DNA of 64,000 nt from an uncultured Staphylococcaceae bacterium (GCA_964639215.1 CAZXCV010000001.1:35168-99167), one strand, 5' to 3'. Counted from the first letter of the stretch, positions 5,735 to 24,591 are shown. Numbers and translations are program-made. The notes: generated from the sequence alone by a model not told the origin.

Positions 5735-8196
<2,462 letters not shown>

Positions 8197-8202
8197 GCAC
8201 GA

Positions 8203-9216
8203 TCACCTTTCTTTCTTACTAAAGTAGTCTTCTAACATCCCAGCGATATATTCAAGCGCGCTGACGACGCGATCATAATCCATCCGAGTCGGTCCAACCA
8301 CAGCGATCGTCCCTTCAGGTCGTCCTGGAATTGCAAGGCGACTCGAGATAATCGAGACATCGCCATATTCCTCTCCAACGTCACCAATCTTGATGGTGAT
8401 ATTTTCACCTTCTTGTTGCACATCGCGGAATACTTGCGGTGAATCGAGCAGTGAGATGAGATGACGAAGTTTTTGGGCATCGGTGCTAAATTCGGGCTGT
8501 GAAAATAGTTCATCAGTGCCATATGTTCGTAACCGATCACTTGCAAAGTGGAGGAACGCTTGGGCAAACGCCTGGTAGATTACATCATGTTCGGCAATAT
8601 AATCTTGTAAGATTGGACGAATGGCTTCCATTTTGCTAACGAGTTCAGAGATTGGTGTCCCGGCCAACCGCTCATTCAAAAGCTTAATGCTTTTTTGTAA
8701 ATCGGTAATCGACATTTCATCGGGCACCACGAACGTCTTATTTTCGACATAGCCTTGATCGGTTACGAACACGGCCGTGGCTGAGTTACCGGCAATCGGG
8801 ATGATTGTGAGGCTGACCAGCCGTTCGTCTTTGGCATTCGGTCCGAGCACGATTGAAGCAAGATTCGTCATATGGGCGAGAATTTCACAACTTTCGCGCA
8901 AGATATCTTCGATTGACTGTGTTTTCTTATCGAGAATCAGTTGTAGTTGCTGTTTAATCGTCTCATCGACACCACGGCTGCGAAGATTATCAATATAGTA
9001 GCGATATCCTTTACTCGAGGGAACGCGTCCTGATGAAGTGTGCGTCTTTTCTAAAAACGCCGCTCCTTCAAGTTCGCTCATTTCTGCACGTATGGTCGCG
9101 CTCGAATATGGTAAATCATACGCTTCGATCAACGTGTGGCTTCCAACAGGAACCGCCGTTTTAATGAAGTGTTCAACAATGAGTTTTAAGATTTGATCGC
9201 GGCGGGATAAGACCAT
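8203..9216 (-). CDS. hrcA: heat-inducible transcription repressor HrcA
   Basis: 337 aa, MVLSRRDQILKLIVEHFIKTAVPVGS... with an N-terminal wHTH. It is the first gene of the dnaK operon, immediately downstream of the CIRCE elements. Confidence 0.9.
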   Translation of the reverse strand: MVLSRRDQILKLIVEHFIKTAVPVGSHTLIEAYDLPYSSATIRAEMSELEGAAFLEKTHTSSGRVPSSKGYRYYIDNLRSRGVDETIKQQLQLILDKKTQSIEDILRESCEILAHMTNLASIVLGPNAKDERLVSLTIIPIAGNSATAVFVTDQGYVENKTFVVPDEMSITDLQKSIKLLNERLAGTPISELVSKMEAIRPILQDYIAEHDVIYQAFAQAFLHFASDRLRTYGTDELFSQPEFSTDAQKLRHLISLLDSPQVFRDVQQEGENITIKIGDVGEEYGDVSIISSRLAIPGRPEGTIAVVGPTRMDYDRVVSALEYIAGMLEDYFSKKER

Positions 9217-9228
9217 GATTGCTCCTCA

Positions 9229-9255
9229 TTAGCACACTAATTCTTTGAGTGCCAC
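9229..9255 (-). promoter_or_regulatory. CIRCE-like HrcA operator 1
   Basis: TTAGCACAC-N9-GAGTGCCAC versus the consensus TTAGCACTC-N9-GAGTGCTAA. It sits 13 nt upstream of the hrcA start, between the promoter and the RBS. Confidence 0.7.
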
Positions 9256-9259
9256 GACC

Positions 9260-9288
9260 ATTTTATACCACGAAATTAGCACTGTCAA
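9260..9288 (-). promoter_or_regulatory. sigma-A type promoter of the hrcA-grpE-dnaK-dnaJ operon
   Basis: On the minus strand there is a TTGACA at 9283-9288, then a 15-17 nt spacer, then TATAAA/TAAAAT at 9260-9267. The promoter overlaps CIRCE 2. Confidence 0.5.
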
Positions 9289-9302
9289 TAAATAAGTGCT
9301 AG
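9276..9302 (-). promoter_or_regulatory. CIRCE-like HrcA operator 2
   Basis: TTAGCACTG-N9-AAGTGCTAG. The -35 TTGACA lies in its spacer. Confidence 0.65.
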
Positions 9303-9342: not shown

Positions 9343-9747
9343 CTAATAACACTTTTTATCAATCACTAATGTGTCCGAAAGTCGGTCAAAAATTGTCCGT
9401 TCGGTATGAATGATAATCATGTTCAAGGCATTAATAAGCGCCCAGGCAAAAATTGCGAGTCCAGCGACGCGGATGAGAGCAATACGGGCAGAAATTTTCT
9501 GGTCATCAAGGCGGACGACACGAATTCTTGTAATCATACTGCCAAGTGTCAATCCATTTGTGAGTGTGAGAAAACTGAATGTCAAAAGCGCATAGATGAC
9601 AGCAGCCGCAATTTGTGACAAAAGAATTTTTTCAATCAGCAAGAGATTGATCGGTAATAAAAAGAAGATGGCGAAAGCGGCAACAGCAGCAATCCCATAA
9701 TCAATGAAGTAAGCGATGATTCGTTTTTCATATCGTGCGATATGCAT
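9343..9747 (-). CDS. RDD-family membrane protein
   Basis: 134 aa with YFIDYGIAAVAAFAIFF and a second TM segment, arranged as in RDD domains. Confidence 0.5.
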   Translation of the reverse strand: MHIARYEKRIIAYFIDYGIAAVAAFAIFFLLPINLLLIEKILLSQIAAAVIYALLTFSFLTLTNGLTLGSMITRIRVVRLDDQKISARIALIRVAGLAIFAWALINALNMIIIHTERTIFDRLSDTLVIDKKCY

Positions 9748-9757
9748 ATTCGTCTCC

Positions 9758-10873
9758 TTAAGATAATAATGTCACGATTATCTTGTCTAAAAGCATTAAG
9801 CCATCATCAGTAGCATACCAAAAATGTTGGTAATTATGAAGTAAACCACCCTCGAGAAGTTTTGGAAATTTATCGAAGTAGCGAACGCTGAATTCAGCAT
9901 CAAAGAGCCTGTGATATTCACGTTCATCAAAACCAGTATCTAACCGAAGTTTTAGCATCAGATAATATTCCTCTTTTAACGTAAGATCGATCTTTTCTCG
10001 TTCACTGATAGTGATGCCTTGGCAGTATTTACTAAAGTTTTGGGTATTCTTATAGCGAATTTCGTCGTCATCTTCTTTAATATAGCCACTTGCTCCGAGG
10101 CCAACACCATAATAAAACTCATTATTCCAATAGGTTTGATTATGACGAGCTTCATAACCTGGTTTTGCAAAATTTGACACTTCATAACGACGATAGCCAG
10201 CTTTTCTCAATTGGTCCAAGATGAGATCATAATGATTGCGCGAGCGATCGTTACTTACCGTTTTTACACCTCGAATTCCAAACACGGTGTGAGGATGAAC
10301 CGTTAAGGAGTATGTACTAATATGTTCGACATCTAACTTGATGGCGGTTTCGATATCCGCGATCAAATCACGGTTCGTTTGTCCTGGAAGATCAAAGATT
10401 AAATCGATGTTGATGTTATTAAACCCAACTTCACGTGCCATAGAAATAGTCGTATTAACATCTTTCCCACGATGATTCCGGTTCATTTTTTTCAGTAATC
10501 GATCGTTAAATGATTGTACACCGATACTTAAACGGTTAACGCCATAGTGGTGGAGCAGCTTTAATTTTTCAAGCGTGAGATTTTCAATATTTCCTTCGAC
10601 CGTAAATTCATAGTTATTGTCTATTAAAGGACGCAAAGTCATCAGTAATAACTCTAACTGATCGAGTCGCAAAGCAGTTGGTGTTCCACCACCGATATAA
10701 ATACTTTGGAGCGATGTCGGTTGATAATGGTCAAGTTCTAAAAAAAGCCACCGTAAATATGTGGTGGCCCACTCGGGGTGATAGAGCATCTTCGTGTAAT
10801 CACAATAATGACAAAGATGCTCACAAAAAGGGATATGGACGTATAATGCTTTAATCTTTTGGTTTGGTGACAT
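9758..10873 (-). CDS. hemW: radical SAM heme chaperone HemW (HemN-like, coproporphyrinogen III oxidase-like)
   Basis: The likely start is ATG 10873 (MSPNQKIKALYVHIPFCEHLCHYCDY), which carries the CxxxCxxC radical-SAM motif. Bacillus synteny is lepA-hemN-hrcA. Confidence 0.8.
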   Translation of the reverse strand: MSPNQKIKALYVHIPFCEHLCHYCDYTKMLYHPEWATTYLRWLFLELDHYQPTSLQSIYIGGGTPTALRLDQLELLLMTLRPLIDNNYEFTVEGNIENLTLEKLKLLHHYGVNRLSIGVQSFNDRLLKKMNRNHRGKDVNTTISMAREVGFNNINIDLIFDLPGQTNRDLIADIETAIKLDVEHISTYSLTVHPHTVFGIRGVKTVSNDRSRNHYDLILDQLRKAGYRRYEVSNFAKPGYEARHNQTYWNNEFYYGVGLGASGYIKEDDDEIRYKNTQNFSKYCQGITISEREKIDLTLKEEYYLMLKLRLDTGFDEREYHRLFDAEFSVRYFDKFPKLLEGGLLHNYQHFWYATDDGLMLLDKIIVTLLS

Positions 10874-11102
10874 CAGGAGTGAATTTTTCCATTTCTTCCT
10901 GGGTCTTATCATCTTCGATTTTAACGATGACGCGCTCAATTTCTTCACGCGCCGCTTCTTCTTCGTCAATCTTGACATCCTTGTTTTTCAAACTTGGAAC
11001 ATGCTTTCGTAATAAGTACGCTGCCAGTGAAATAATTCCGAAAAAGGCTAAGATGACAATGACGGCAATAATTGGATTTTCTAAAATGCTATTATAACTC
11101 AC
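10851..11102 (-). CDS. small membrane protein with a charged C-terminal tail (83 aa)
   Basis: It has one N-terminal TM helix (IIAVIVILAFFGIISLAAYLL) followed by a KD/E-rich tail. It overlaps the hemW start by 23 nt and lies 13 nt downstream of the Fic-like gene. Confidence 0.4.
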   Translation of the reverse strand: MSYNSILENPIIAVIVILAFFGIISLAAYLLRKHVPSLKNKDVKIDEEEAAREEIERVIVKIEDDKTQEEMEKFTPDVTKPKD

Positions 11103-11114
11103 GATAACTCCCTA

Positions 11115-12485
11115 TTACTTTTTACCCACTGGTGTGTAGATAAACTTATTTTTGTATGATTCTTTACGATAATAACCCAAACTCGCGAGATGGTCCATCG
11201 ACGTGCGCGCTGTTTCATAGGCGCACCCGAGCGTTTTCTTAAATTGACTGATTGTGTAAAATTTGCCAAGCGTACAATGACGGGCATAAAAATAAGCCTC
11301 TCCACGTTTTAATGCGGGATTTGTTTCCATTAAATGCTCTTCGATCCGCGCGGCATCGACTTCATCAAGGGCAACAGGAACACTAGGTAGGGCCATACGT
11401 TCATCGAGATGAAGCGGTTTATTCAAAGATGATGAGGTCTCATGATCATTATTCATTGGTGGGCTTAATGGTGCGACACTTGGTGAAGCTGGACGTCGTT
11501 CTTCCTCTTTAAGTTCTTCCTTATCGAGGGTAACCGCATGATCGAGTAAGGCCACAACTGCTTGTTCTAGTAGCGGCAAGGTAAACGCTAATAAATAAGT
11601 GACATCGCCTGATTTTTGTACTTCACTCATGACGCGATTGAAGTCATCTCGCGTATCAATGAGGAGCGATTCCAAAACCAATAGTAAGGGCACCTCGTCA
11701 TAATCGGCGTGCGCCAGCATGTTTTTTAAGGTTAAGAGCGCGATTTCTTCTGAGAATGTCTCAAACGGTTTCACGAGCATCATGTAATAGAAAGTGACGA
11801 TTGCTTTGACGATTGGCGAAAATTCTGCGTGGTTAATGAAATCTTGGAGTTGTCCCATCATTTCATCGATTCTGGATGTTGGTGCGGCGACATACGTCTT
11901 TCCGATTAAAGCTTTTTGCTCGATTGAAGCAATTTCTTGGAGTCGGTAAAGTGTACTCATATCTTCTTGTCCACTCAATAGACTATAAATAGCAGCCCAA
12001 AACGCTTCGTCGATCGGATCATTTAGATGTGTCTTGGTATATTTGATGGCATTATAGTAATTCAATAAAATCATCCGGTCAGGACTAATGGTTGAAAGCG
12101 TGTCATTAACAACACTTTTTAAAAATGAATCGTTGATGTTTAAGCGGTACTTTTGGGCGACAAAGGCGAGTTGTTGCGCATGAAATTCCTGTTCATAGGC
12201 GGCATAGTTAATTGATGTTTTTGATGTTTTGTTTAAACGAAGCCACGCTTTCATCATCTGCCGTTCAATCGCGTTAATTTTATCATTTAACGAAGGGGTT
12301 ACGACGACGCTTAACGGACCATGATCGATGGAGCGTAATGCAAGATAACGTGTGAATTGCCCCCGATATTTGATGATATTCGTCCAAATGACATCGATTA
12401 AAGATGTCCCCAAAGCTTTGGCGACTTCCGAACGTGTGGCATACGTTTCGTTACTAAAGCGAATTGCTAAATCATCATTTCCCAT
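11115..12485 (-). CDS. Fic-fold protein (Fic_N + Fic core + C-terminal wHTH, COG3177-like) with a degenerate active-site motif; likely a pseudoenzyme
   Basis: YVAAPTSRIDEMMGQLQDFINHAEFSPIVKAIVTFYYMMLVKPFETFSEEIALLTL aligns with the Fic consensus YVPPxP...FxN....P.LIKAALAHYQFE.IHPFxDGNGRxGRLL. The HPFxDGNGR motif is replaced by KPFETFSEE. The C-terminal helices (VLESLLIDTRDDFNRV...GDVTYLLAFTL) and a terminal wHTH (GKFYTISQFKKTLGCAYETARTSMDHLASLGYY) are conserved. Confidence 0.6.
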   Translation of the reverse strand: MGNDDLAIRFSNETYATRSEVAKALGTSLIDVIWTNIIKYRGQFTRYLALRSIDHGPLSVVVTPSLNDKINAIERQMMKAWLRLNKTSKTSINYAAYEQEFHAQQLAFVAQKYRLNINDSFLKSVVNDTLSTISPDRMILLNYYNAIKYTKTHLNDPIDEAFWAAIYSLLSGQEDMSTLYRLQEIASIEQKALIGKTYVAAPTSRIDEMMGQLQDFINHAEFSPIVKAIVTFYYMMLVKPFETFSEEIALLTLKNMLAHADYDEVPLLLVLESLLIDTRDDFNRVMSEVQKSGDVTYLLAFTLPLLEQAVVALLDHAVTLDKEELKEEERRPASPSVAPLSPPMNNDHETSSSLNKPLHLDERMALPSVPVALDEVDAARIEEHLMETNPALKRGEAYFYARHCTLGKFYTISQFKKTLGCAYETARTSMDHLASLGYYRKESYKNKFIYTPVGKK

Positions 12486-12573
12486 AGTTATGCCTTTTAC
12501 CTTATTACAAAGATAACAAACAATCGACTAATTTTCTACTAAATTGTCTGGTCATTTTCAGCAATTTCATCGA

Positions 12574-14385
12574 TTATTCGTCATCAAGCGATAAAACAGT
12601 CATGAACGCCTCTTGGGGTACTTCAACCGACCCAATCGCTTTCATGCGTTTTTTTCCTTCTTTTTGTTTATCTAGGAGCTTGCGTTTCCGTGAGATATCG
12701 CCACCATAACATTTAGCTAAAACGTCTTTGCGAACAGCTTTTATATTGCTGCGCGCGATGATTTTTCCTCCAATTGCTGCTTGGACCGGAATTTCAAATT
12801 GTTGCCGTGGAATGATGTCCTTGAGCTTACGAACAATCACACTCCCACGATCAAAGGCATTCCCTTTAAAGACGATGGTCGAAAGTGCGTCAATTGGTTC
12901 ACCATTAAGTAAAATGTCCATTTTCGTAAGGTTACTCGCCCGATATTCGGCCAGTTGATAATCAAGGGAAGCATAACCTTTCGTCGTACTCTTCAACCGA
13001 TCAAAAAAATTGAAAATAATTTCGGCTAATGGTAGTTCATACTTAATAATCATCCTTGTATCATCGAAAAATTCGAGATCGACATGGATTCCACGCCGTG
13101 CTTGGCATAATTCCATCACGGCACCGACGTATTCCTTCGGTGTCATAATCGAAGCCAGGACATAGGGCTCTTGGATTTCTTTAATCAAGGTTGGATGTGG
13201 TAACTGGCTCGGATTATCAAGATTGATGATGTCATCGTTATTCATATGGACTTTATAAATGACGCTCGGTGCTGTCAAGATTAAATTCAGCCCGTATTCG
13301 CGTTCAAGTCGTTCTTGCACGACGTTCATGTGGAGTAAACCTAAAAAACCACAGCGAAATCCAAAGCCAAGTGCCTGGGAGTTTTCTGGTTCATATTTTA
13401 GGGCTGCATCATTGAGCGATAATTTTTCAAGCGCATCTTTGAGATCGCCATATTTTTTGGAATCAACCGGATAAAGCCCGCAGTAAACCATCGGATTAAT
13501 GTGGCGATAGCCTGGCAATGCCTCTTCAGCGGGACGTGAAGCGAGGGTCACTGTTTCTCCCGAATGGACATCTTTGATATCTTTAATTTGAGCAGCAATA
13601 TAACCAACTTCACCTGAATATAGCACATCGCGTTTTTCTTCTTTGGGAGTCCGAATTCCAACCTCGGTGACTAAATATTTCTTATTGACGGCCATCAGTA
13701 AAATCGTATCCCCGACTTTGACTGTGCCTTGTTTGATGCGGATTTGGATGATTACGCCGCGATATGAGTCATAGAATGAATCAAAAATAAGTGCTTTTAA
13801 GGGTCCGTTCACATCACCTTTAGGACAAGGGACGTACTTCACGACTGCCTCGAGCACAGCCTTAATATTCAAACCCGTTTTCGCGGAAATGGGAATCGCA
13901 TGTTCGATTGGCAAACCAATGCGATCACGAATTTCTTCTTTGGTATGTTCAACATTAGCTGAGGGTAAATCGACCTTATTAATCACCGGTATTATTTCTA
14001 AATCATTGTCGATAGCGAGATAGACGTTCGCTAATGTTTGGGCTTCGACGCCTTGTGAGGCGTCAACGACAAGTAATGCACCCTCACAAGCTGCAAGCGA
14101 TCGCGATACTTCATATGTGAAATCAACATGCCCTGGTGTATCAATTAAATTAAAGACATAATCTTGTCCATCATCAGCATGATATTTTAAGGTTACCGAG
14201 GTTAGTTTAATCGTGATACCACGTTCTCGTTCCAAATCAAGTGAATCGAGCAGTTGTTCTCGCATATCACGGCTACTAACCGTTCCAGTTAATTCTAAAA
14301 TCCGATCAGCCAAAGTTGATTTGCCATGATCAATATGAGCGATAATTGAGAAGTTACGAATCCGTGATCGGTTAAAATTATTCAT
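12574..14385 (-). CDS. lepA: elongation factor 4 (LepA)
   Basis: 603 aa with [20 protein letters not shown] (G1) and DTPGHVDF motifs and the LepA C-terminal domain. Confidence 0.95.
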
Positions 14386-14424: not shown

Positions 14425-16773
14425 TTAGTTTCGTATCTCATTCCAAAAAGTTGTTAATAGTTCCGCTAAATCATCGGGCGTAATCACTGCTTCATACTCC
14501 GACCACTCAGCTTTAAACATCGCGCGGTATCGCGTTTCTAAATATCGATCGTCAATAAGTAAGGCTATCCCACGATCAGATTCTGAACGAATTACACGAC
14601 CAACGGCTTGCATGACGCGATTCATCCCAGGATATGCATAACTAAACGCGTAACCATCCCATGACCGCGCCTCGAAATAATCGCGGATTAAATCACGTTC
14701 AAATGATAGCTGCGGTAAACCAACACCGACGACAATCGAACCAATCAATCGATCTTCGATTAAATCAATTCCCTCTGAAAAGGGACCACCCAACACCACA
14801 AAACCAGCGGTCGTTACCGTCGGAGCATGTTTAAATTCAGCGAGAAATGCTGTTTGAGCCGTTAAATCCATATCTTGTTCTTGCATGATAATGTCAATGT
14901 CCACACCTGTTTTCATATGAGCACGAACCTCATGCATATACTTATAACTTGGGAAAAAAACAAGGTAGTTTCCTAAGCGTGACGAGAGGGCAATTTCAAT
15001 ATAGAGCGCGACTTCATCAAGCGTTGCTTTACGCGCTTTATAACGTGTTGACACTTTTGGAGCGACCATTAATAGTAAATTGTTGGTAGGAAACGGTGAT
15101 GGTAATCGTAAAACTGGATCAGTTAAATCACCACCTAGCATCGGCACATAATAATCAAGAGGCGCTAACGTTGCGCTAAATAAAACTCGCCCTTTCAAAG
15201 GTTGCATCGTCTGTCTTAGAAGTGTGCTGGAATCAAGACATAACAGTTTAATCATGAAGCCAGTCTCTGGTCCATAGGCTTGGTAATATACAAAATGTTC
15301 ATCATAAAAATCACTCAACTTTAAAAAGCGGTTGGCATCGAAATAAAAATCTTTAAATTGTTCGGTCACCTTGTCTGGTAATTTTCGCATTACATCTTGT
15401 GCTTGGACGATGAAGGCGTCGAGTGCTCGTAGCCACACCGTATCTAGAACAATTACTTTTTGATATTCTTTCGTGGTAATGTCGTGTTCTTTGAACAATT
15501 TATTAAGACGTGATAGTGTCTTTTTGAATTTTGGATGCGTCACCTGGCGCATGCTTCTTTTCATTTTTTCATAGCAACCACGGGAAATGTCGCATGAATA
15601 CATCGATCGACTTCGCTCTAATAAATTATGAGCTTCATCGACTAGTAAAAAATGGCGTGAACTGTCAGTATCAAAGAACCGTCTTAGGTATACCGTTGGA
15701 TCGAATACGTAATTGTAGTCACCGATGACAACATCGGTAAAGAGTGATAAATCAAGTTGTAATTCAAACGGACAAATGTCGTATTTTGCGCCATAATCAG
15801 TGATGTTAAAGCGATTAAAGGAAATTTCATGACTTAAGGCCTCAGTCAGCACTTGGCGAATCTTATCATAGTAGCCTTTTGCATAGGGGCATTCATCGGG
15901 ATTACAACTAGCACCAGGATTAAAACATATTTTGTCTTTAGCAGTCAGGACAATATCACGAACCAGAGCACCTTGATCGCGTAAATGACTAACGGCAACA
16001 CTTGCGGCATCATGACCAGAATTTTTAGCGGTAACATAAAAGATTTTTCCATCAATACCACGGCCAAATGCCAAGACAGCTGGATAGAGTGTCGAAATCG
16101 TTTTACCAATACCTGTGGGTGCTTCTGCAAAAAGTGTGCCACCATTTTTAGTCAGTGCATACACGTATTTGGCCAGTTCCCGTTGCCCTTTACGAAATGA
16201 TTTAAAAGGAAATGGGAGCTGCTTGACTGAATCATTTCGTAAAGTAATACGCTCATCGACCGCTCGATAAAAGGCAAGATAGCCACGAATCAGATTGATG
16301 ATTTCATCCTCGAGCTCAGGTACTGACCGTTCATACGATTTTGTCAGCGTTTTCTGATCAGCCTGATTGATATAAATCAGCCGAATTCGAATGAGGTCCA
16401 GATCGTGAGTGATTGCATACATGTGACCATAGAGAAACGCTTGCATCGTGTGCCATTGTTCATGCATCGTTGCGAAAGTATCAAGGTCAGCAACGGTTGT
16501 TTTTACTTCTTCAATAAAAACTTTGCCAAGAATTTGGCGAATTCCATCCGCATAACCTTCAATCGTCACGTCATATTCTTCGACTTGATAAAGATGGCGA
16601 AGAAAATGTTCGGCTTCAAATTCCCCGGTTTGTGCTTGTTGATAAAGCTGATGCATCTTGGTCCCCATTTGCATTGAGGCTTTGTTAAAAATGCGATTAT
16701 CAATGTCACCACTTCGCAGCATGAAATCAACTAGCTCATGGACCGACAAGCGCAGCGCTCGTCTTATTTCCAT
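14425..16773 (-). CDS. RecB-family (PD-(D/E)xK) nuclease fused to an XPD/DinG-like Fe-S SF2 helicase
   Basis: 782 aa. The N-terminal 180 aa carry nuclease motifs IEGYADGIR (GxxD), VFIEEVK (ExK) and QAFLY (QxxxY). Helicase motif I is APTGIGKT, and there is an Fe-S Cys cluster (CFNPGASCNPDECP...DICPF) and a DEAH box (VDEAHNL). It overlaps the fmt stop by 10 nt. Confidence 0.7.
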   Translation of the reverse strand: MEIRRALRLSVHELVDFMLRSGDIDNRIFNKASMQMGTKMHQLYQQAQTGEFEAEHFLRHLYQVEEYDVTIEGYADGIRQILGKVFIEEVKTTVADLDTFATMHEQWHTMQAFLYGHMYAITHDLDLIRIRLIYINQADQKTLTKSYERSVPELEDEIINLIRGYLAFYRAVDERITLRNDSVKQLPFPFKSFRKGQRELAKYVYALTKNGGTLFAEAPTGIGKTISTLYPAVLAFGRGIDGKIFYVTAKNSGHDAASVAVSHLRDQGALVRDIVLTAKDKICFNPGASCNPDECPYAKGYYDKIRQVLTEALSHEISFNRFNITDYGAKYDICPFELQLDLSLFTDVVIGDYNYVFDPTVYLRRFFDTDSSRHFLLVDEAHNLLERSRSMYSCDISRGCYEKMKRSMRQVTHPKFKKTLSRLNKLFKEHDITTKEYQKVIVLDTVWLRALDAFIVQAQDVMRKLPDKVTEQFKDFYFDANRFLKLSDFYDEHFVYYQAYGPETGFMIKLLCLDSSTLLRQTMQPLKGRVLFSATLAPLDYYVPMLGGDLTDPVLRLPSPFPTNNLLLMVAPKVSTRYKARKATLDEVALYIEIALSSRLGNYLVFFPSYKYMHEVRAHMKTGVDIDIIMQEQDMDLTAQTAFLAEFKHAPTVTTAGFVVLGGPFSEGIDLIEDRLIGSIVVGVGLPQLSFERDLIRDYFEARSWDGYAFSYAYPGMNRVMQAVGRVIRSESDRGIALLIDDRYLETRYRAMFKAEWSEYEAVITPDDLAELLTTFWNEIRN

Positions 16774-17699
16774 AGATGACCGAGGTAGTGCCGATGGCCA
16801 TTGAGAAAATCATGTCCGATCGTTGGACGTTTACCCGGAATTTGTAATAAAGTTATCTCGATGTTTCCATCAATCAATTGAAGTAAAAGTTTTCCATTTT
16901 GTTCATGAACAGTTCCAATTTCGTTATCGATCGATGTGTTATATAACTTGGTTGCTAAAAGTTTGATTCGCTCATCATTACTTAAAACATAGCCACCTGG
17001 ACTAGGAGCTAATGCTCTGACATAATTTATAAAATCACGGCTTGATAAACCGATGTTTAAATGCTCTTGTTCTATTTTTATCGAGGGAGCAAAACTAACT
17101 TGTGCCACATCTTGAGGAATACCTTTTAACTCATCATTTAGATATTGTTTTAATAGTAAGGGCACAAATGTATTGATGGTCGCACTCATCCGATTTCGTA
17201 GTGTTTCATAGTTATCATCATCTAGAATTGTGACTGGAATTTGTGCATACATCGGTCCAGCGTCCATTTGCGTGACCATCTCCATCAGCGTAAATCCTGT
17301 TTCCTTGAAACCGTGCATCAAGGCATATTGTATCGGAGCCGCACCACGTAACCTTGGTAACAAACTGCCATGGACGTTTAGTGGACGATACTTCGGCCAT
17401 TTCAGTACGGCATCGGGAACGATTTGTCCATACGCCAAAGTGACGATGAGATCGGCATCGAGATGATTAATGAAATCATGATTAATACGGATTGACGTCG
17501 GCTGAAATATAGGAATATCGTATTTTTCTGCGATGATTTTTGTGGCAGCTTTCATGAGTAAATTACGGCGACCAAAAGAAGCATCAGGCTGGGCAATCAC
17601 AGCGACAATATTAAATTGACCATTAATCAATGTTTCAAGTAATGATGCGGCTATTTCCGGTGTGCCCATAAAGACAACTTTAGCGTGCTTATAATCCAT
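16764..17699 (-). CDS. fmt: methionyl-tRNA formyltransferase
   Basis: 311 aa with VVFMGTPEIAASLL and HGSLLPRLRGAAPIQ. Confidence 0.9.
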   Translation of the reverse strand: MDYKHAKVVFMGTPEIAASLLETLINGQFNIVAVIAQPDASFGRRNLLMKAATKIIAEKYDIPIFQPTSIRINHDFINHLDADLIVTLAYGQIVPDAVLKWPKYRPLNVHGSLLPRLRGAAPIQYALMHGFKETGFTLMEMVTQMDAGPMYAQIPVTILDDDNYETLRNRMSATINTFVPLLLKQYLNDELKGIPQDVAQVSFAPSIKIEQEHLNIGLSSRDFINYVRALAPSPGGYVLSNDERIKLLATKLYNTSIDNEIGTVHEQNGKLLLQLIDGNIEITLLQIPGKRPTIGHDFLNGHRHYLGHLWK

Positions 17700-22533: not shown

Positions 22534-24591
22534 TTAACTGAAAACTTTTCGATATGTTATTGTCCCTTCGATATCGGTACGCCGGATTGTAATTCCTTGT
22601 TCCTCAAGCCGTCTAATAATTTCAGGATGTGGATGTCCATATTGATTTTGACCAACCGATATTATCGCTTCATGTGGCTGTATATGTCTTAAAAACGAGG
22701 TCGAGGTCGAGGTTGTTGACCCATGGTGACCGACTTTAAGATAATCCGTTGGTAAAATAGGATGGTTATCAATAATTAATATTTCAACTTCGCTTGGCGC
22801 ATCACCCATTAACAGCCACTGGTAGTCCATGAATTGGAAATATAGAACGAGTGAACACATATTGGCATCAAGACATTGATTAAGGGGATTGATATTATCG
22901 AAGTGTATGCCAGCTCGAACAATCGGAAAATCGGTTGGCTCGAGAATAATTTCTGAAATTGGGAATTGTGATTGAAGAGAATTAAGCGCGCCACGATGAT
23001 CGTAGTCATCATGAGTAATAATTAATGTATCAATCTTATCGATGCCGTGTCGATGAAAAAACGGAACTAGTGAAACCGAGGCGATATCAAGATAGATTGA
23101 ACCACCAGTATCGATTAAAATTGCCGATCGCTTATTCTTGATCAAGATAGCATCTCCCTGACCAACGTTAATAAAAAATAGTGCTTGTTCATATAAATTT
23201 GATATTGGTAAGATTGAAAAAATAATCATCAGAGTCAAGCCAAAACAACCGATGTTTTTCGTTACTTTAACATGCAATTGTTTTAGAAAAAATGATAGAG
23301 AAAAAAATAGATAATAACCAAGAATAATTAGCGGTGTAAACATCGCGAAATGAAGCTGTAGCTTTACGACTTGTGAACTCGAAATAAGGAGATGGCTCAG
23401 TCGTGTCAGTGGCCGAATTATATTCACTAATGGGAGGGAATATAAGGATAGAAGACCAAGTGTTAACATCGATGAATGAACCATGACTAAAGGTCCAAGC
23501 AATAACCAGCTGATAAGATTAACTAATCCTTGGGTGTTTGCTAGAAAAGGTAGCAAAATCAATAGCGGGATATAGCGATTTTTAAGACGATTCATGATTG
23601 ACTCATGATGCTTGTTTTCCTTGACTATGTATAAGATTGAGGCGATACCAAACGACAAATAAAATCCAGGATGGTTTACTATATATCTACTAAATAACAA
23701 CATCATTATTCCTAACGACGCTTTCTTAGACCAATATGACCAATGATAGGAACCCTTGTCTTTTAAAATTAAATTAAGAATTGAACCCCCGATGATGCGC
23801 CACAAGACGACTGAAGTAATATTTAGAAAAAGCCATGGTACCAAACTTATGAACGCCAAGCGTTGTGCTTTCTTCTCACTCATAAATCTAATGAGGATTA
23901 GGTTAAGAATTTTTAGGTGACCGTGAATTAACAAGCCAGAAACACTCAGTAGATATAGGAGATTTAATGAGGCAAGATTCGAAACAATATCATGATTATA
24001 ATCACGTGTTGCAAACAAAATCGCATCAAGATATATTCGGGTGTCGCTATCAAAATTGTTCAGGAATCTGCTCTTGATATTTTGAATGCGCCACGGTAAT
24101 AAAAATACATCGGATTTATGAGTGAATATTAGTTCATGCTGAATACCTTTATTATTCAAATATTTAGCAAAATCAAATTGTCCTTCTACTCGAAAAAAAT
24201 TTATTGGTTTTACAAATCCTTCAGCCAAGATGACGTCACCAACTTGATAAGGGTGGTGTCGCATATACACATATAAACGTGTCAATTTATTTTGGACAAT
24301 CAAGTAATTTTCATGAGCGTCAATTACGAGATAAAAATGAGCTGACGCTGGTTCAAGTGAGGAAGTTAAATATCGTGAGGAGAATCCACACAAAAATGCT
24401 AAGAATAATGTCAGCATAGCGGCAGTTCCAAAACGATAATAAGTAAAAACTACAATCATAATCATGGCAATCACAACAATGATTGGAGTATCAAAGGTGG
24501 CGAGAATGCCTAAATATAACCCGATGAAACACGCAACAAAATTAAACGAGCGTAATGTAGTTTTTAATTTTTTCAAATGTCGCATTACCAA
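22534..24591 (-). CDS. comEC: DNA internalization competence protein ComEC/Rec2 (start uncertain)
   Basis: A polytopic membrane N-terminal part plus a C-terminal metallo-beta-lactamase domain (ITHDDYDHRGAL...VGHHGS). The 5' end overlaps comEA by 50 nt, so the true start is probably further downstream. Confidence 0.8.
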   Translation of the reverse strand: MVMRHLKKLKTTLRSFNFVACFIGLYLGILATFDTPIIVVIAMIMIVVFTYYRFGTAAMLTLFLAFLCGFSSRYLTSSLEPASAHFYLVIDAHENYLIVQNKLTRLYVYMRHHPYQVGDVILAEGFVKPINFFRVEGQFDFAKYLNNKGIQHELIFTHKSDVFLLPWRIQNIKSRFLNNFDSDTRIYLDAILFATRDYNHDIVSNLASLNLLYLLSVSGLLIHGHLKILNLILIRFMSEKKAQRLAFISLVPWLFLNITSVVLWRIIGGSILNLILKDKGSYHWSYWSKKASLGIMMLLFSRYIVNHPGFYLSFGIASILYIVKENKHHESIMNRLKNRYIPLLILLPFLANTQGLVNLISWLLLGPLVMVHSSMLTLGLLSLYSLPLVNIIRPLTRLSHLLISSSQVVKLQLHFAMFTPLIILGYYLFFSLSFFLKQLHVKVTKNIGCFGLTLMIIFSILPISNLYEQALFFINVGQGDAILIKNKRSAILIDTGGSIYLDIASVSLVPFFHRHGIDKIDTLIITHDDYDHRGALNSLQSQFPISEIILEPTDFPIVRAGIHFDNINPLNQCLDANMCSLVLYFQFMDYQWLLMGDAPSEVEILIIDNHPILPTDYLKVGHHGSTTSTSTSFLRHIQPHEAIISVGQNQYGHPHPEIIRRLEEQGITIRRTDIEGTITYRKVFS

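Follow-up and report, generated by a model that had tools for sequence, protein, structure and literature searches.

A stretch of 64,000 nucleotides from an uncultured Staphylococcaceae bacterium (GCA_964639215.1 CAZXCV010000001.1:35168-99167), analysed as a whole and hereafter called the window, carries between lepA and hemW a 456-amino-acid open reading frame (ORF), here named X, and behind it an 83-amino-acid ORF encoding a small membrane protein. We propose that X is a Fic pseudoenzyme, derived from enzymes with the DUF4172/Fic_N-Fic-winged helix-turn-helix (wHTH) architecture, and that it has been kept as a regulatory, possibly autoregulatory, DNA-binding protein. Sequence comparison and analogy with characterized relatives lead us to give this reading a probability of roughly 55%. 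A preliminary description of the window had reported both ORFs at this place, overlapping the hemW start. Both were confirmed, on the minus strand, and all the peptide stretches of X quoted in that description were found in the translation.

Fic fold and degenerate active site of X

The preliminary description had read a Fic_N/Fic fold in X. Scans with Pfam and NCBIfam gave no Fic or Fic_N match for the window protein even at E<=1, but other hidden Markov models (HMMs) and the predicted fold rescue the assignment, the homology being real though weak in sequence. A phmmer search of X against the PDB found the Fic protein 4rgl (E=2.7e-5, residues 168-311). A profile built from 93 members of the X family matched the same structure with E=1.3e-9 over profile positions 78-314, and it also matched CbFic2, C. 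elegans FIC-1, FICD and SoFic. The best HMM match to X was the PADLOC SoFic model (E=1.2e-13), and three homologues (P0022, P0033 and P0070) scored 25.8-26.9 bits, the Pfam Fic gathering cutoff being 24. An AlphaFold2 model of X computed from the family alignment, with a mean predicted local distance difference test (pLDDT) score of 88.5, has the all-alpha Fic core with the helix pair that bears the motif loop, and Foldseek recognized it as a Fic fold (E about 1e-8). The order of domains is SoFic-like and ends in a C-terminal wHTH, as had also been described. Because of the matches to 4rgl and to the PADLOC SoFic model, the homologues that pass the Pfam cutoff and the confident AlphaFold2 model, X is assigned structurally to the DUF4172/Fic_N-Fic-wHTH class.

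Judged by its alignments, the catalytic apparatus has been erased in every member of the X family that was examined. The motif HPFADGNGRMGR of 4rgl pairs with KPFETFSEEIAL of X in both the phmmer and the profile alignments, the latter taking the place of HPFx(D/E)GNGRxxR. Over the 93 aligned members the consensus at this site is [KR]PFxx[YF][SN][DE]E. In place of the catalytic His they have K (59 sequences), R (30), Q (2) or G (1), and the Gly-Asn-Gly-Arg anion nest has become Ser-Asp/Glu-Glu. In Fic enzymes this nest holds the phosphates of the nucleotide, which an acidic replacement should repel. The canonical pattern H.F.[DEN][GA]N[GK]R was found in none of the 120 closest and none of the 142 cluster-representative homologues (0/262).

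The autoinhibitory motif is lost as well. The inhibitory helix is retained, with the consensus [VLI]A[K]x[YH]x instead of [ST]xxxE[GN]: VAQKYR of X aligns with SLAIEN of 4rgl and TVAIEG of C. elegans FIC-1, and both the Ser/Thr and the inhibitory Glu are gone. Tyr occupies position 113, that of the Glu, in 67 of the 93 sequences and His in another 13, and E is never among the top residues. Loss of both the catalytic and the inhibitory motif is the pattern expected of a pseudoenzyme. The earlier statement that the catalytic His and the GNGR nest are missing from X is thus borne out by the motif alignments, and the term Fic pseudoenzyme is a fair description for the family as a whole. The flap anchors Y180, R181, Y198 and P202 are invariant or nearly so; in the model the flap tip (residues 191-194) has a pLDDT below 50 and shows no clear strands.

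Conservation of the winged-helix domains

In the model of X, the Fic part is preceded by a winged-helix-like domain that is absent from 4rgl, whose profile alignment begins at residue 78. W34, Y40 and R41, in the third helix of this domain, are invariant. Identity to X, to which distant members of the family are only about 40% identical overall, was compared region by region. It reaches 69% in the C-terminal wHTH, where the recognition helix CAYETARTSMDHL is nearly invariant, and 50% in the N-terminal winged helix, and falls to 28-37% in the Fic_N-like, flap and core parts and to 15% in the linker. By this measure the strongest purifying selection on X falls on its two winged-helix domains. 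The Fic core has a net charge of -14 and keeps R181, P240, F241, K254, E272, D294, T296 and Y297 invariant, and it is not decaying freely.

Within the C-terminal wHTH, H403 and C404 never vary, C421 is kept in 91 of 93 sequences and position 432 is mostly His. These residues are a candidate metal, heme or redox-sensing site, which is worth noting beside the heme chaperone gene hemW.

A phased TAGTA element upstream of X

When the lepA-X spacers of divergent loci were aligned, TTAGTA units with an 11-bp period surfaced. Of 81 non-redundant loci, 74 have the pattern TAGT[AT]N6TAGT in the 250 bp that precede X; composition-preserving shuffles yield 1.2 on average and 5 at most. Its density upstream of X is 4.6 per kb, versus 0.04 per kb elsewhere in the loci. 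The loci have 2 to 4 exact TAGTA units, almost always in the same orientation, on the coding strand. What is conserved is a specific TAGTA core and not mere A/T richness, the spacers between the units being T/A tracts, and the element tracks X over loci whose proteins share only 35-40% identity. An invariant recognition helix and an invariant TAGTA half-site, found together with proteins that are about 40% identical, make autoregulatory binding the most economical reading.

The X promoter is of the sigma-A type (9-10 of 12 in most loci), with the start codon about 20 nt beyond it. The distance from the start of the last TAGTA unit to the -35 is 10-13 bp in 35 loci and 21-23 bp in 16, offsets that correspond to one or two repeat periods. 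In several relatives a clear terminator follows lepA ahead of the repeats, which indicates that X heads its own transcription unit. Downstream, no terminator-like site was found in the window between X and the gene for an RDD-family membrane protein behind hemW. Together with the short spacers and overlaps between the genes, this suggests that X, the small-protein gene, hemW and, where present, the RDD gene form one unit.

The repeat pair of the window, TTAGTAGAAAATTAGT, is the sole exact match in its 64 kb. A copy with one mismatch, TTAGTAGATATATAGT, lies at 23678-23693 (minus strand) within a 685-amino-acid ORF (22534-24591); the expected number of such matches in the window being 0.9, this copy is most likely due to chance.

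Distribution and gene order

Relatives were sought in a scan of one genome per species, and taxon labels were judged on the best 80 stretches. X has more than 860 database homologues, 233 clusters were obtained at 50% identity and E<1e-30, and relatives were found in 476 stretches. The best 80 of these are nearly all from uncultured Bacilli, 'Mollicutes' or Erysipelotrichaceae-type metagenome-assembled genomes, including Coprobacillus sp. CAG:826 and Candidatus Onthovivens. A few titles carry unrelated taxon names that look like binning labels. One of the contigs carrying X is 1.33 Mb long.

The order lepA-X-small protein-hemW is invariant in the 86 retrieved loci wherever the contig reaches far enough. 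Of these loci, 83 contain the small ORF and the other three end at X (83/83 of those long enough). Searches started from three divergent homologues of the small protein led to the same context in all three cases, where the small ORF and hemW share 14-23 nt. No relative of X was found in phage records, and plasmid records gave one weak match only. On account of the invariant order, the agreement of the searches from the small-protein side, the lack of phage relatives and the single weak plasmid match, we conclude that the pair of X and the small protein is fixed and lineage-defining, and that a local insertion or a mobile element is excluded. The preliminary description had spoken of two genes inserted in the lepA-hemW junction. 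Instead of such a local event, comparative genomics revealed a pair fixed in about 476 species genomes and conserved between lepA and hemW across a whole lineage of uncultured Bacilli from the gut and the environment.

The small membrane protein

An alignment of 78 homologues shows that the small protein consists of a short N-terminus, a transmembrane helix, a basic juxtamembrane stretch with the consensus (R/H)(K/R)xxxPxLK and an acidic tail. The basic stretch, by the positive-inside rule, places the C-terminus in the cytoplasm. The tail carries a conserved acidic linear motif, REEIERVIVKIEDD in the window, of the form EE(L/I)(D/E)R(V/I)(L/I)xP/K(I/V)EDE (consensus EELDRVLxP(I/V)EDE), in which E53, R57 and D64 are invariant or nearly so. 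In the AlphaFold2 model the transmembrane helix spans residues 10-34 (pLDDT about 95), and the tail, with pLDDT 50-65, forms short helices at 47-58 and 65-72, which fits a motif that would fold on binding a partner.

The small protein has 340 database homologues, and all those recovered are short proteins of the same family. Scans with Pfam and NCBIfam assigned it to no family. In precomputed annotations, some homologues, for example P0273 (L207:4001-4252), carry a weak match to PF27867 ('Membra_charge'); a local Pfam scan of P0273, P0366 and the small protein of the window did not reproduce it.

Relation to known Fic systems

Fic proteins have been studied almost entirely as enzymes, and the DNA-binding role of CccR, CbFic2 and SoFic is a recent addition. 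CccR of Yersinia pseudotuberculosis represses its own gene via its C-terminal HTH, for which the catalytic His is not needed, and recognises palindromes (PMC9755527). CbFic2 (Coxiella burnetii CBU_0822) uses its HTH to bind DNA, on which it dimerises (PMC10628234), and a dimer of SoFic from Shewanella oneidensis binds the 100 bp that lie upstream of its own gene (bioRxiv 10.64898/2026.07.09.737422). These proteins and Dde_2494 (PDB 4rgl) are of class II, and X has their DUF4172/Fic_N-Fic-C-terminal wHTH architecture in common. X differs from all of them in lacking the catalytic His, the GNGR nest, the second Arg and the inhibitory Glu, in having an extra N-terminal winged helix and a disordered linker of roughly 40 residues, and in its fixed chromosomal housekeeping context with an obligate small membrane-protein neighbour. 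SoFic is also modelled in PADLOC as a phage-defence system. X matches that HMM, but its motif is dead and it belongs to a fixed housekeeping operon. By sequence and predicted structure, X looks like the Fic-wHTH class with its enzymology deleted and its DNA-binding capacity doubled. The preliminary description had suggested a DNA- or protein-binding regulator. The DNA-binding part of this suggestion is strengthened by the conservation of the winged helices, the TAGTA promoter element and the precedent of CccR and SoFic, which make such a role plausible.

Non-catalytic Fic domains are known from Bartonella BepC and Pseudomonas AvrB (PMC7842960), and degenerate Fic clades have previously been described from in silico work (PMC4454073). 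In BepC most of the motif survives, in the non-canonical form HxFxKGNGRxxR, and the protein acts by binding GEF-H1; AvrB lacks the catalytic residues. Both proteins are secreted as virulence effectors, have host proteins as their targets and carry no HTH domain, whereas X is cytoplasmic, lineage-wide and equipped with two winged helices. Class I FicT/FicA systems (VbhT/VbhA) resemble the present pair in that a Fic-fold protein is encoded beside a small protein. However, the neighbour of X is a single-pass membrane protein without [ST]xxxE[GN] in 78 homologues, X has no active site to inhibit, and the gene order and the conserved housekeeping context differ. OmpR/PhoB-type activators offer a functional analogy only: they use winged helices on direct-repeat sites 11 bp apart that abut or replace the -35, an arrangement that the candidate sites of X share. 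X has no receiver domain and no homology to them past the generic wHTH fold, and its own binding is predicted only. In the literature we found no report of a family-wide dead Fic scaffold with two winged helices, a fixed lineage-wide housekeeping operon, a phased candidate operator and an obligate small membrane-protein neighbour.

The X family looks like a natural separation-of-function variant, in which catalysis and autoinhibition have been erased and the DNA-binding ends, the promoter element and certain core residues kept, under constraints upheld over hundreds of species with small genomes. It would offer a clean system for studying the part that the Fic scaffold plays in regulation, be it dimerisation, sensing or partner binding. 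X and the TAGTA element would also be a testable operator-regulator pair for a large group of uncultured gut Bacilli with almost no known regulation. Finally, the analysis provides an annotation for two genes that are now mostly 'hypothetical' or wrongly implied to be Fic enzymes.

Proposed mechanism and alternatives

The ancestor of X would have been a Fic enzyme of the class of SoFic, CbFic2, CccR and Dde_2494 that lost its AMP-transfer chemistry. X probably dimerises via the long N-terminal Fic_N helix, as do SoFic and CbFic2. Its C-terminal recognition helix would bind the TAGTA repeats, possibly with the N-terminal winged helix on a neighbouring unit, and this binding would control transcription of the unit comprising X, the small protein, hemW and, where present, the RDD gene. 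The site geometry is that of an OmpR/PhoB-type activator, and autorepression as in CccR is equally possible. The dead Fic core would most likely serve as a dimerisation module that also senses a ligand or peptide, and the small membrane protein, via its conserved cytoplasmic tail, would be the most likely input or tether. More speculatively, and with low confidence, X and the small protein may be a signalling pair of a kind not described before, the tail, with its basic juxtamembrane segment and the EELDRVLxPIEDE motif, docking in the dead acidic groove and flap of the Fic part or mimicking DNA on the winged helices. Either way X would stay membrane-tethered, to be released onto the phased TAGTA operators by a cue from membrane, heme or proteostasis. 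If this were true, a substrate-clamping site would have become the sensor of a transcription factor for hemW and, in some lineages that have TAGTA arrays behind dnaK and hemW too, for chaperone genes.

Several observations weigh against the proposed role of X or parts of it. The candidate operator is a direct repeat and the CccR site is a palindrome. The subclade of the window has a compressed layout, in which the promoter that follows the repeats scores only 5-6 of 12. An OmpR-family response regulator would give the same pattern of TAGTA conservation, recognition of the element by X being only predicted. X is paired with the small protein, proposed earlier as its possible working partner, by strict co-occurrence; the mirror-tree residual correlation of the two (0.48) is no higher than that of control pairs (0.31-0.73), which leaves the co-evolution test uninformative. 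The small protein, being translationally coupled to hemW, could equally be a partner of HemW. Finally, the conserved acidic Fic core suggests a function beyond that of a regulator.

These points lead to the alternatives. Direct repeats one helical turn (11 bp) apart that abut the -35 are typical of OmpR/PhoB-type sites, such as pho boxes and the PhoP boxes of B. subtilis. X may therefore bind DNA with its target elsewhere, the TAGTA repeats belonging to another regulator, for example of this type, or representing a phased A/T-rich UP-like or curved promoter element. The T/A tracts between the units would suit such an element, and the characterised relative CccR binds palindromes (PMC9755527). 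We consider this unlikely, given that the repeats follow X even at 35-40% protein identity, that the recognition helix of X is equally invariant, that no second exact site occurs in 64 kb, and that it is the specific TAGTA core which is kept, not just A/T richness. Somewhat less unlikely is an alternative that concerns the small protein, namely that it is the partner of HemW, as a membrane anchor or heme hand-over site for example, and that X only regulates both or is co-transcribed with them. In the window as in its relatives, the end of the small ORF and the start of hemW have 14-23 nt in common, which implies coupled translation, and no specific co-evolution of X and the small protein was detected by the mirror-tree analysis. 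On the other side, HemW is widespread in Firmicutes and the recovered homologues of the small protein all belong to one short-protein family. Moreover, the small protein directly follows X in every locus examined, so that the two appear to have arrived and stayed together.

The conserved Fic core invites other explanations. X could be mainly a non-catalytic protein-binding adaptor, whose flap and groove grip the switch region of a translational GTPase or an Hsp70, with the winged helices as accessories. The full or near invariance of the flap anchors Y180, R181, Y198 and P202 and the invariance of several core residues fit this, as do the matches of the X profile to FICD and FIC-1. Among active relatives, SoFic targets switch I of EF-Tu and FICD targets BiP; LepA is encoded next to X, and dnaK lies four genes downstream (five in the window, counting the RDD gene). 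SoFic inactivated by the H198A substitution can still attach to AMPylated EF-Tu through beta-augmentation beneath the flap (bioRxiv 10.64898/2026.07.09.737422), and the FIC domain of BepC works non-catalytically (PMC7842960). However, the inactive-SoFic complex needed the AMP moiety, which the pocket of X cannot hold, and among the structured regions of X the Fic part shows the lowest conservation. Terminators part lepA from X in several relatives. The order lepA-hemW-hrcA-grpE-dnaK is ancestral in Firmicutes, so the adjacency may be incidental. On balance we regard an adaptor as quite improbable. Even less probable, to the point of being very doubtful, is that X is still an enzyme with different chemistry at a remodelled site ([KR]PF...S[DE]E with K254, E272 and D294). 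Invariant polar residues do persist in the core, and variants of the Fic motif can switch chemistry, as in the kinase Doc and in phosphocholination by AnkX (PMC4454073). Against this, the position of the catalytic His varies among K, R, Q and G, the acidic residues in place of Gly-Asn-Gly-Arg would repel nucleotide phosphates, and the autoinhibitory Glu has been lost too, as expected when there is nothing to inhibit. We reject the reading of the pair as a FicT/FicA-like toxin-antitoxin or SoFic-type phage-defence module, or as a mobile element, which has hardly any probability left. The best HMM match is indeed a defence model, and a Fic-fold gene with a small neighbour superficially resembles class I FicTA. 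Yet the catalytic motif is absent family-wide, and the small protein is membrane-anchored, encoded downstream and without [ST]xxxE[GN]. The position is also fixed in a housekeeping operon over about 476 species, phage matches are lacking and plasmid matches are limited to one weak case, and the GC content over the two genes is unremarkable.

Locus layout and the heat-shock operon

The features of the locus and their coordinates are collected in Table 1. Upstream of lepA, fmt and the gene for a DinG-like helicase overlap by 10 nt, and the fmt-helicase-lepA block is kept alongside X in most related loci. The GTG start of the small ORF is 12 nt past the stop codon of X. The match of the long hemW ORF to the HemW model TIGR00539 sets in at residue 44 only, so that the probable start of hemW is the ATG at 10873. 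From there, the first 23 nt of hemW coincide with the end of the small ORF, and hemW is therefore probably co-transcribed and translationally coupled with the small-protein gene. A scan of the region with Rfam gave sub-threshold noise only.

Table 1. Coordinates of the features in the window and of TAGTA arrays in related loci (L numbers).
Feature	Position	Strand	Remarks
fmt	16764-17699	minus	
DinG-like helicase gene	14425-16773	minus	DinG/XPD-like; DEAD_2 and Helicase_C_2
lepA	12574-14385	minus	
lepA-X spacer	12486..12573	minus	repeats, weak sigma-A-like promoter, possible -10 TAATAA (12502-12507), ribosome-binding site of X
Two phased direct repeats TTAGTAGAAAATTAGT	12527..12542	minus	lepA-X spacer; TAGTA units, 11-bp period; candidate operator
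X	11115-12485	minus	456-amino-acid ORF, ATG start; Fic fold with degenerate catalytic site
X, N-terminal winged-helix-like domain	12300..12485	minus	residues 1-62; three helices and a beta-hairpin (AlphaFold2 model)
X, Fic_N-like helices, flap region and Fic core	11496..12299	minus	residues 63-330
X, degenerate inhibitory-helix position VAQKYR	12144..12161	minus	residues 109-114; profile alignment
X, degenerate Fic motif KPFETFSEEIAL	11736..11771	minus	residues 239-250; replaces HPFx(D/E)GNGRxxR
X, linker	11370..11495	minus	residues 331-372; low-confidence, poorly conserved; pLDDT <50 at 343-372
X, C-terminal wHTH	11118..11369	minus	residues 373-456; recognition helix CAYETARTSMDHL
Small membrane protein gene	10851-11102	minus	83-amino-acid ORF, GTG start; Shine-Dalgarno sequence GGGAG 6 nt upstream
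Small protein, acidic linear motif of the tail REEIERVIVKIEDD	10908..10949	minus	residues 52-65; conservation profile of 78 homologues
hemW	9758-10873	minus	longest ORF 9758-10978; radical-SAM heme chaperone family; TIGR00539 E=1.2e-86
RDD-family membrane protein gene	9343-9747	minus	between hemW and hrcA
Two CIRCE-like inverted repeats	9229-9255 and 9276-9302	minus	unit boundary 9229..9302, before hrcA
hrcA	8203-9216	minus	
grpE	7582-8196	minus	
dnaK	5735-7558	minus	
TAGTA arrays in dnaK-dnaJ spacers of relatives	L030:12443, L042:12481, L047:12478, L058:12486, L059:12299		
TAGTA arrays right after the hemW stop, two genomes	L051:8776-8812, L074:8766	opposite strand	

X and the small ORF share a reading frame in the window (11103-11117), being separated by TAA TAG and three codons. 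The same in-frame layout is present in L001 and L003 and absent in L005 and L007, which makes it a probable coincidence rather than a design for read-through. The RDD-family gene was found in only 17 of the 86 related loci and is hence a variable passenger of an otherwise fixed gene order.

The hrcA gene has a promoter of its own, TTGACA-17-TAAAAT (hexamers at 9288..9260, minus strand), which is flanked or overlapped by two repeats resembling the controlling inverted repeat of chaperone expression (CIRCE). Each repeat has 3 mismatches relative to TTAGCACTC-N9-GAGTGCTAA. The genes hrcA-grpE-dnaK are thus predicted to be under standard HrcA/CIRCE control, separate from X, and no TAGTA site was found at their promoter in the window. 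Heat-shock co-regulation of X, considered for the window, was rejected on these grounds. The preliminary description had found the placement next to the heat-shock operon notable. With hrcA under its own promoter and CIRCE elements, and with terminators behind lepA in several relatives, the link is weak and a heat-shock connection of X is unsupported for the window.

TAGTA repeats at other sites

In the window, no TAGTA arrays follow dnaK or hemW. In a low-GC subclade, phased arrays were observed right after the dnaK stop codon, before a hairpin and dnaJ, and two genomes have arrays behind hemW (Table 1). These hint that a TAGTA-binding factor may reach chaperone genes or bracket the X operon in some lineages. 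TAGTA matches in the 3' end of hemW in five loci are probably coincidental, since the coding stretch in question is conserved and the genomes are AT-rich and closely related.

A scan of metagenomes for triple TAGTA units returned mostly unrelated sites: among the matches listed, 1 of 120 lay upstream of an X gene, and the scan is uninformative on a regulon. Several unrelated contigs (L093, L096, L107, L124, L130, L153, L204 and others), many of them with 45-55% GC, contain at least 4 tandem TTAGTAnnnnn units. These arrays have the 11-bp period and do not stand beside X homologues; in L204 over 20 matches were counted, distributed over its two strands. Such arrays may represent iteron-like or satellite repeats belonging to another element.

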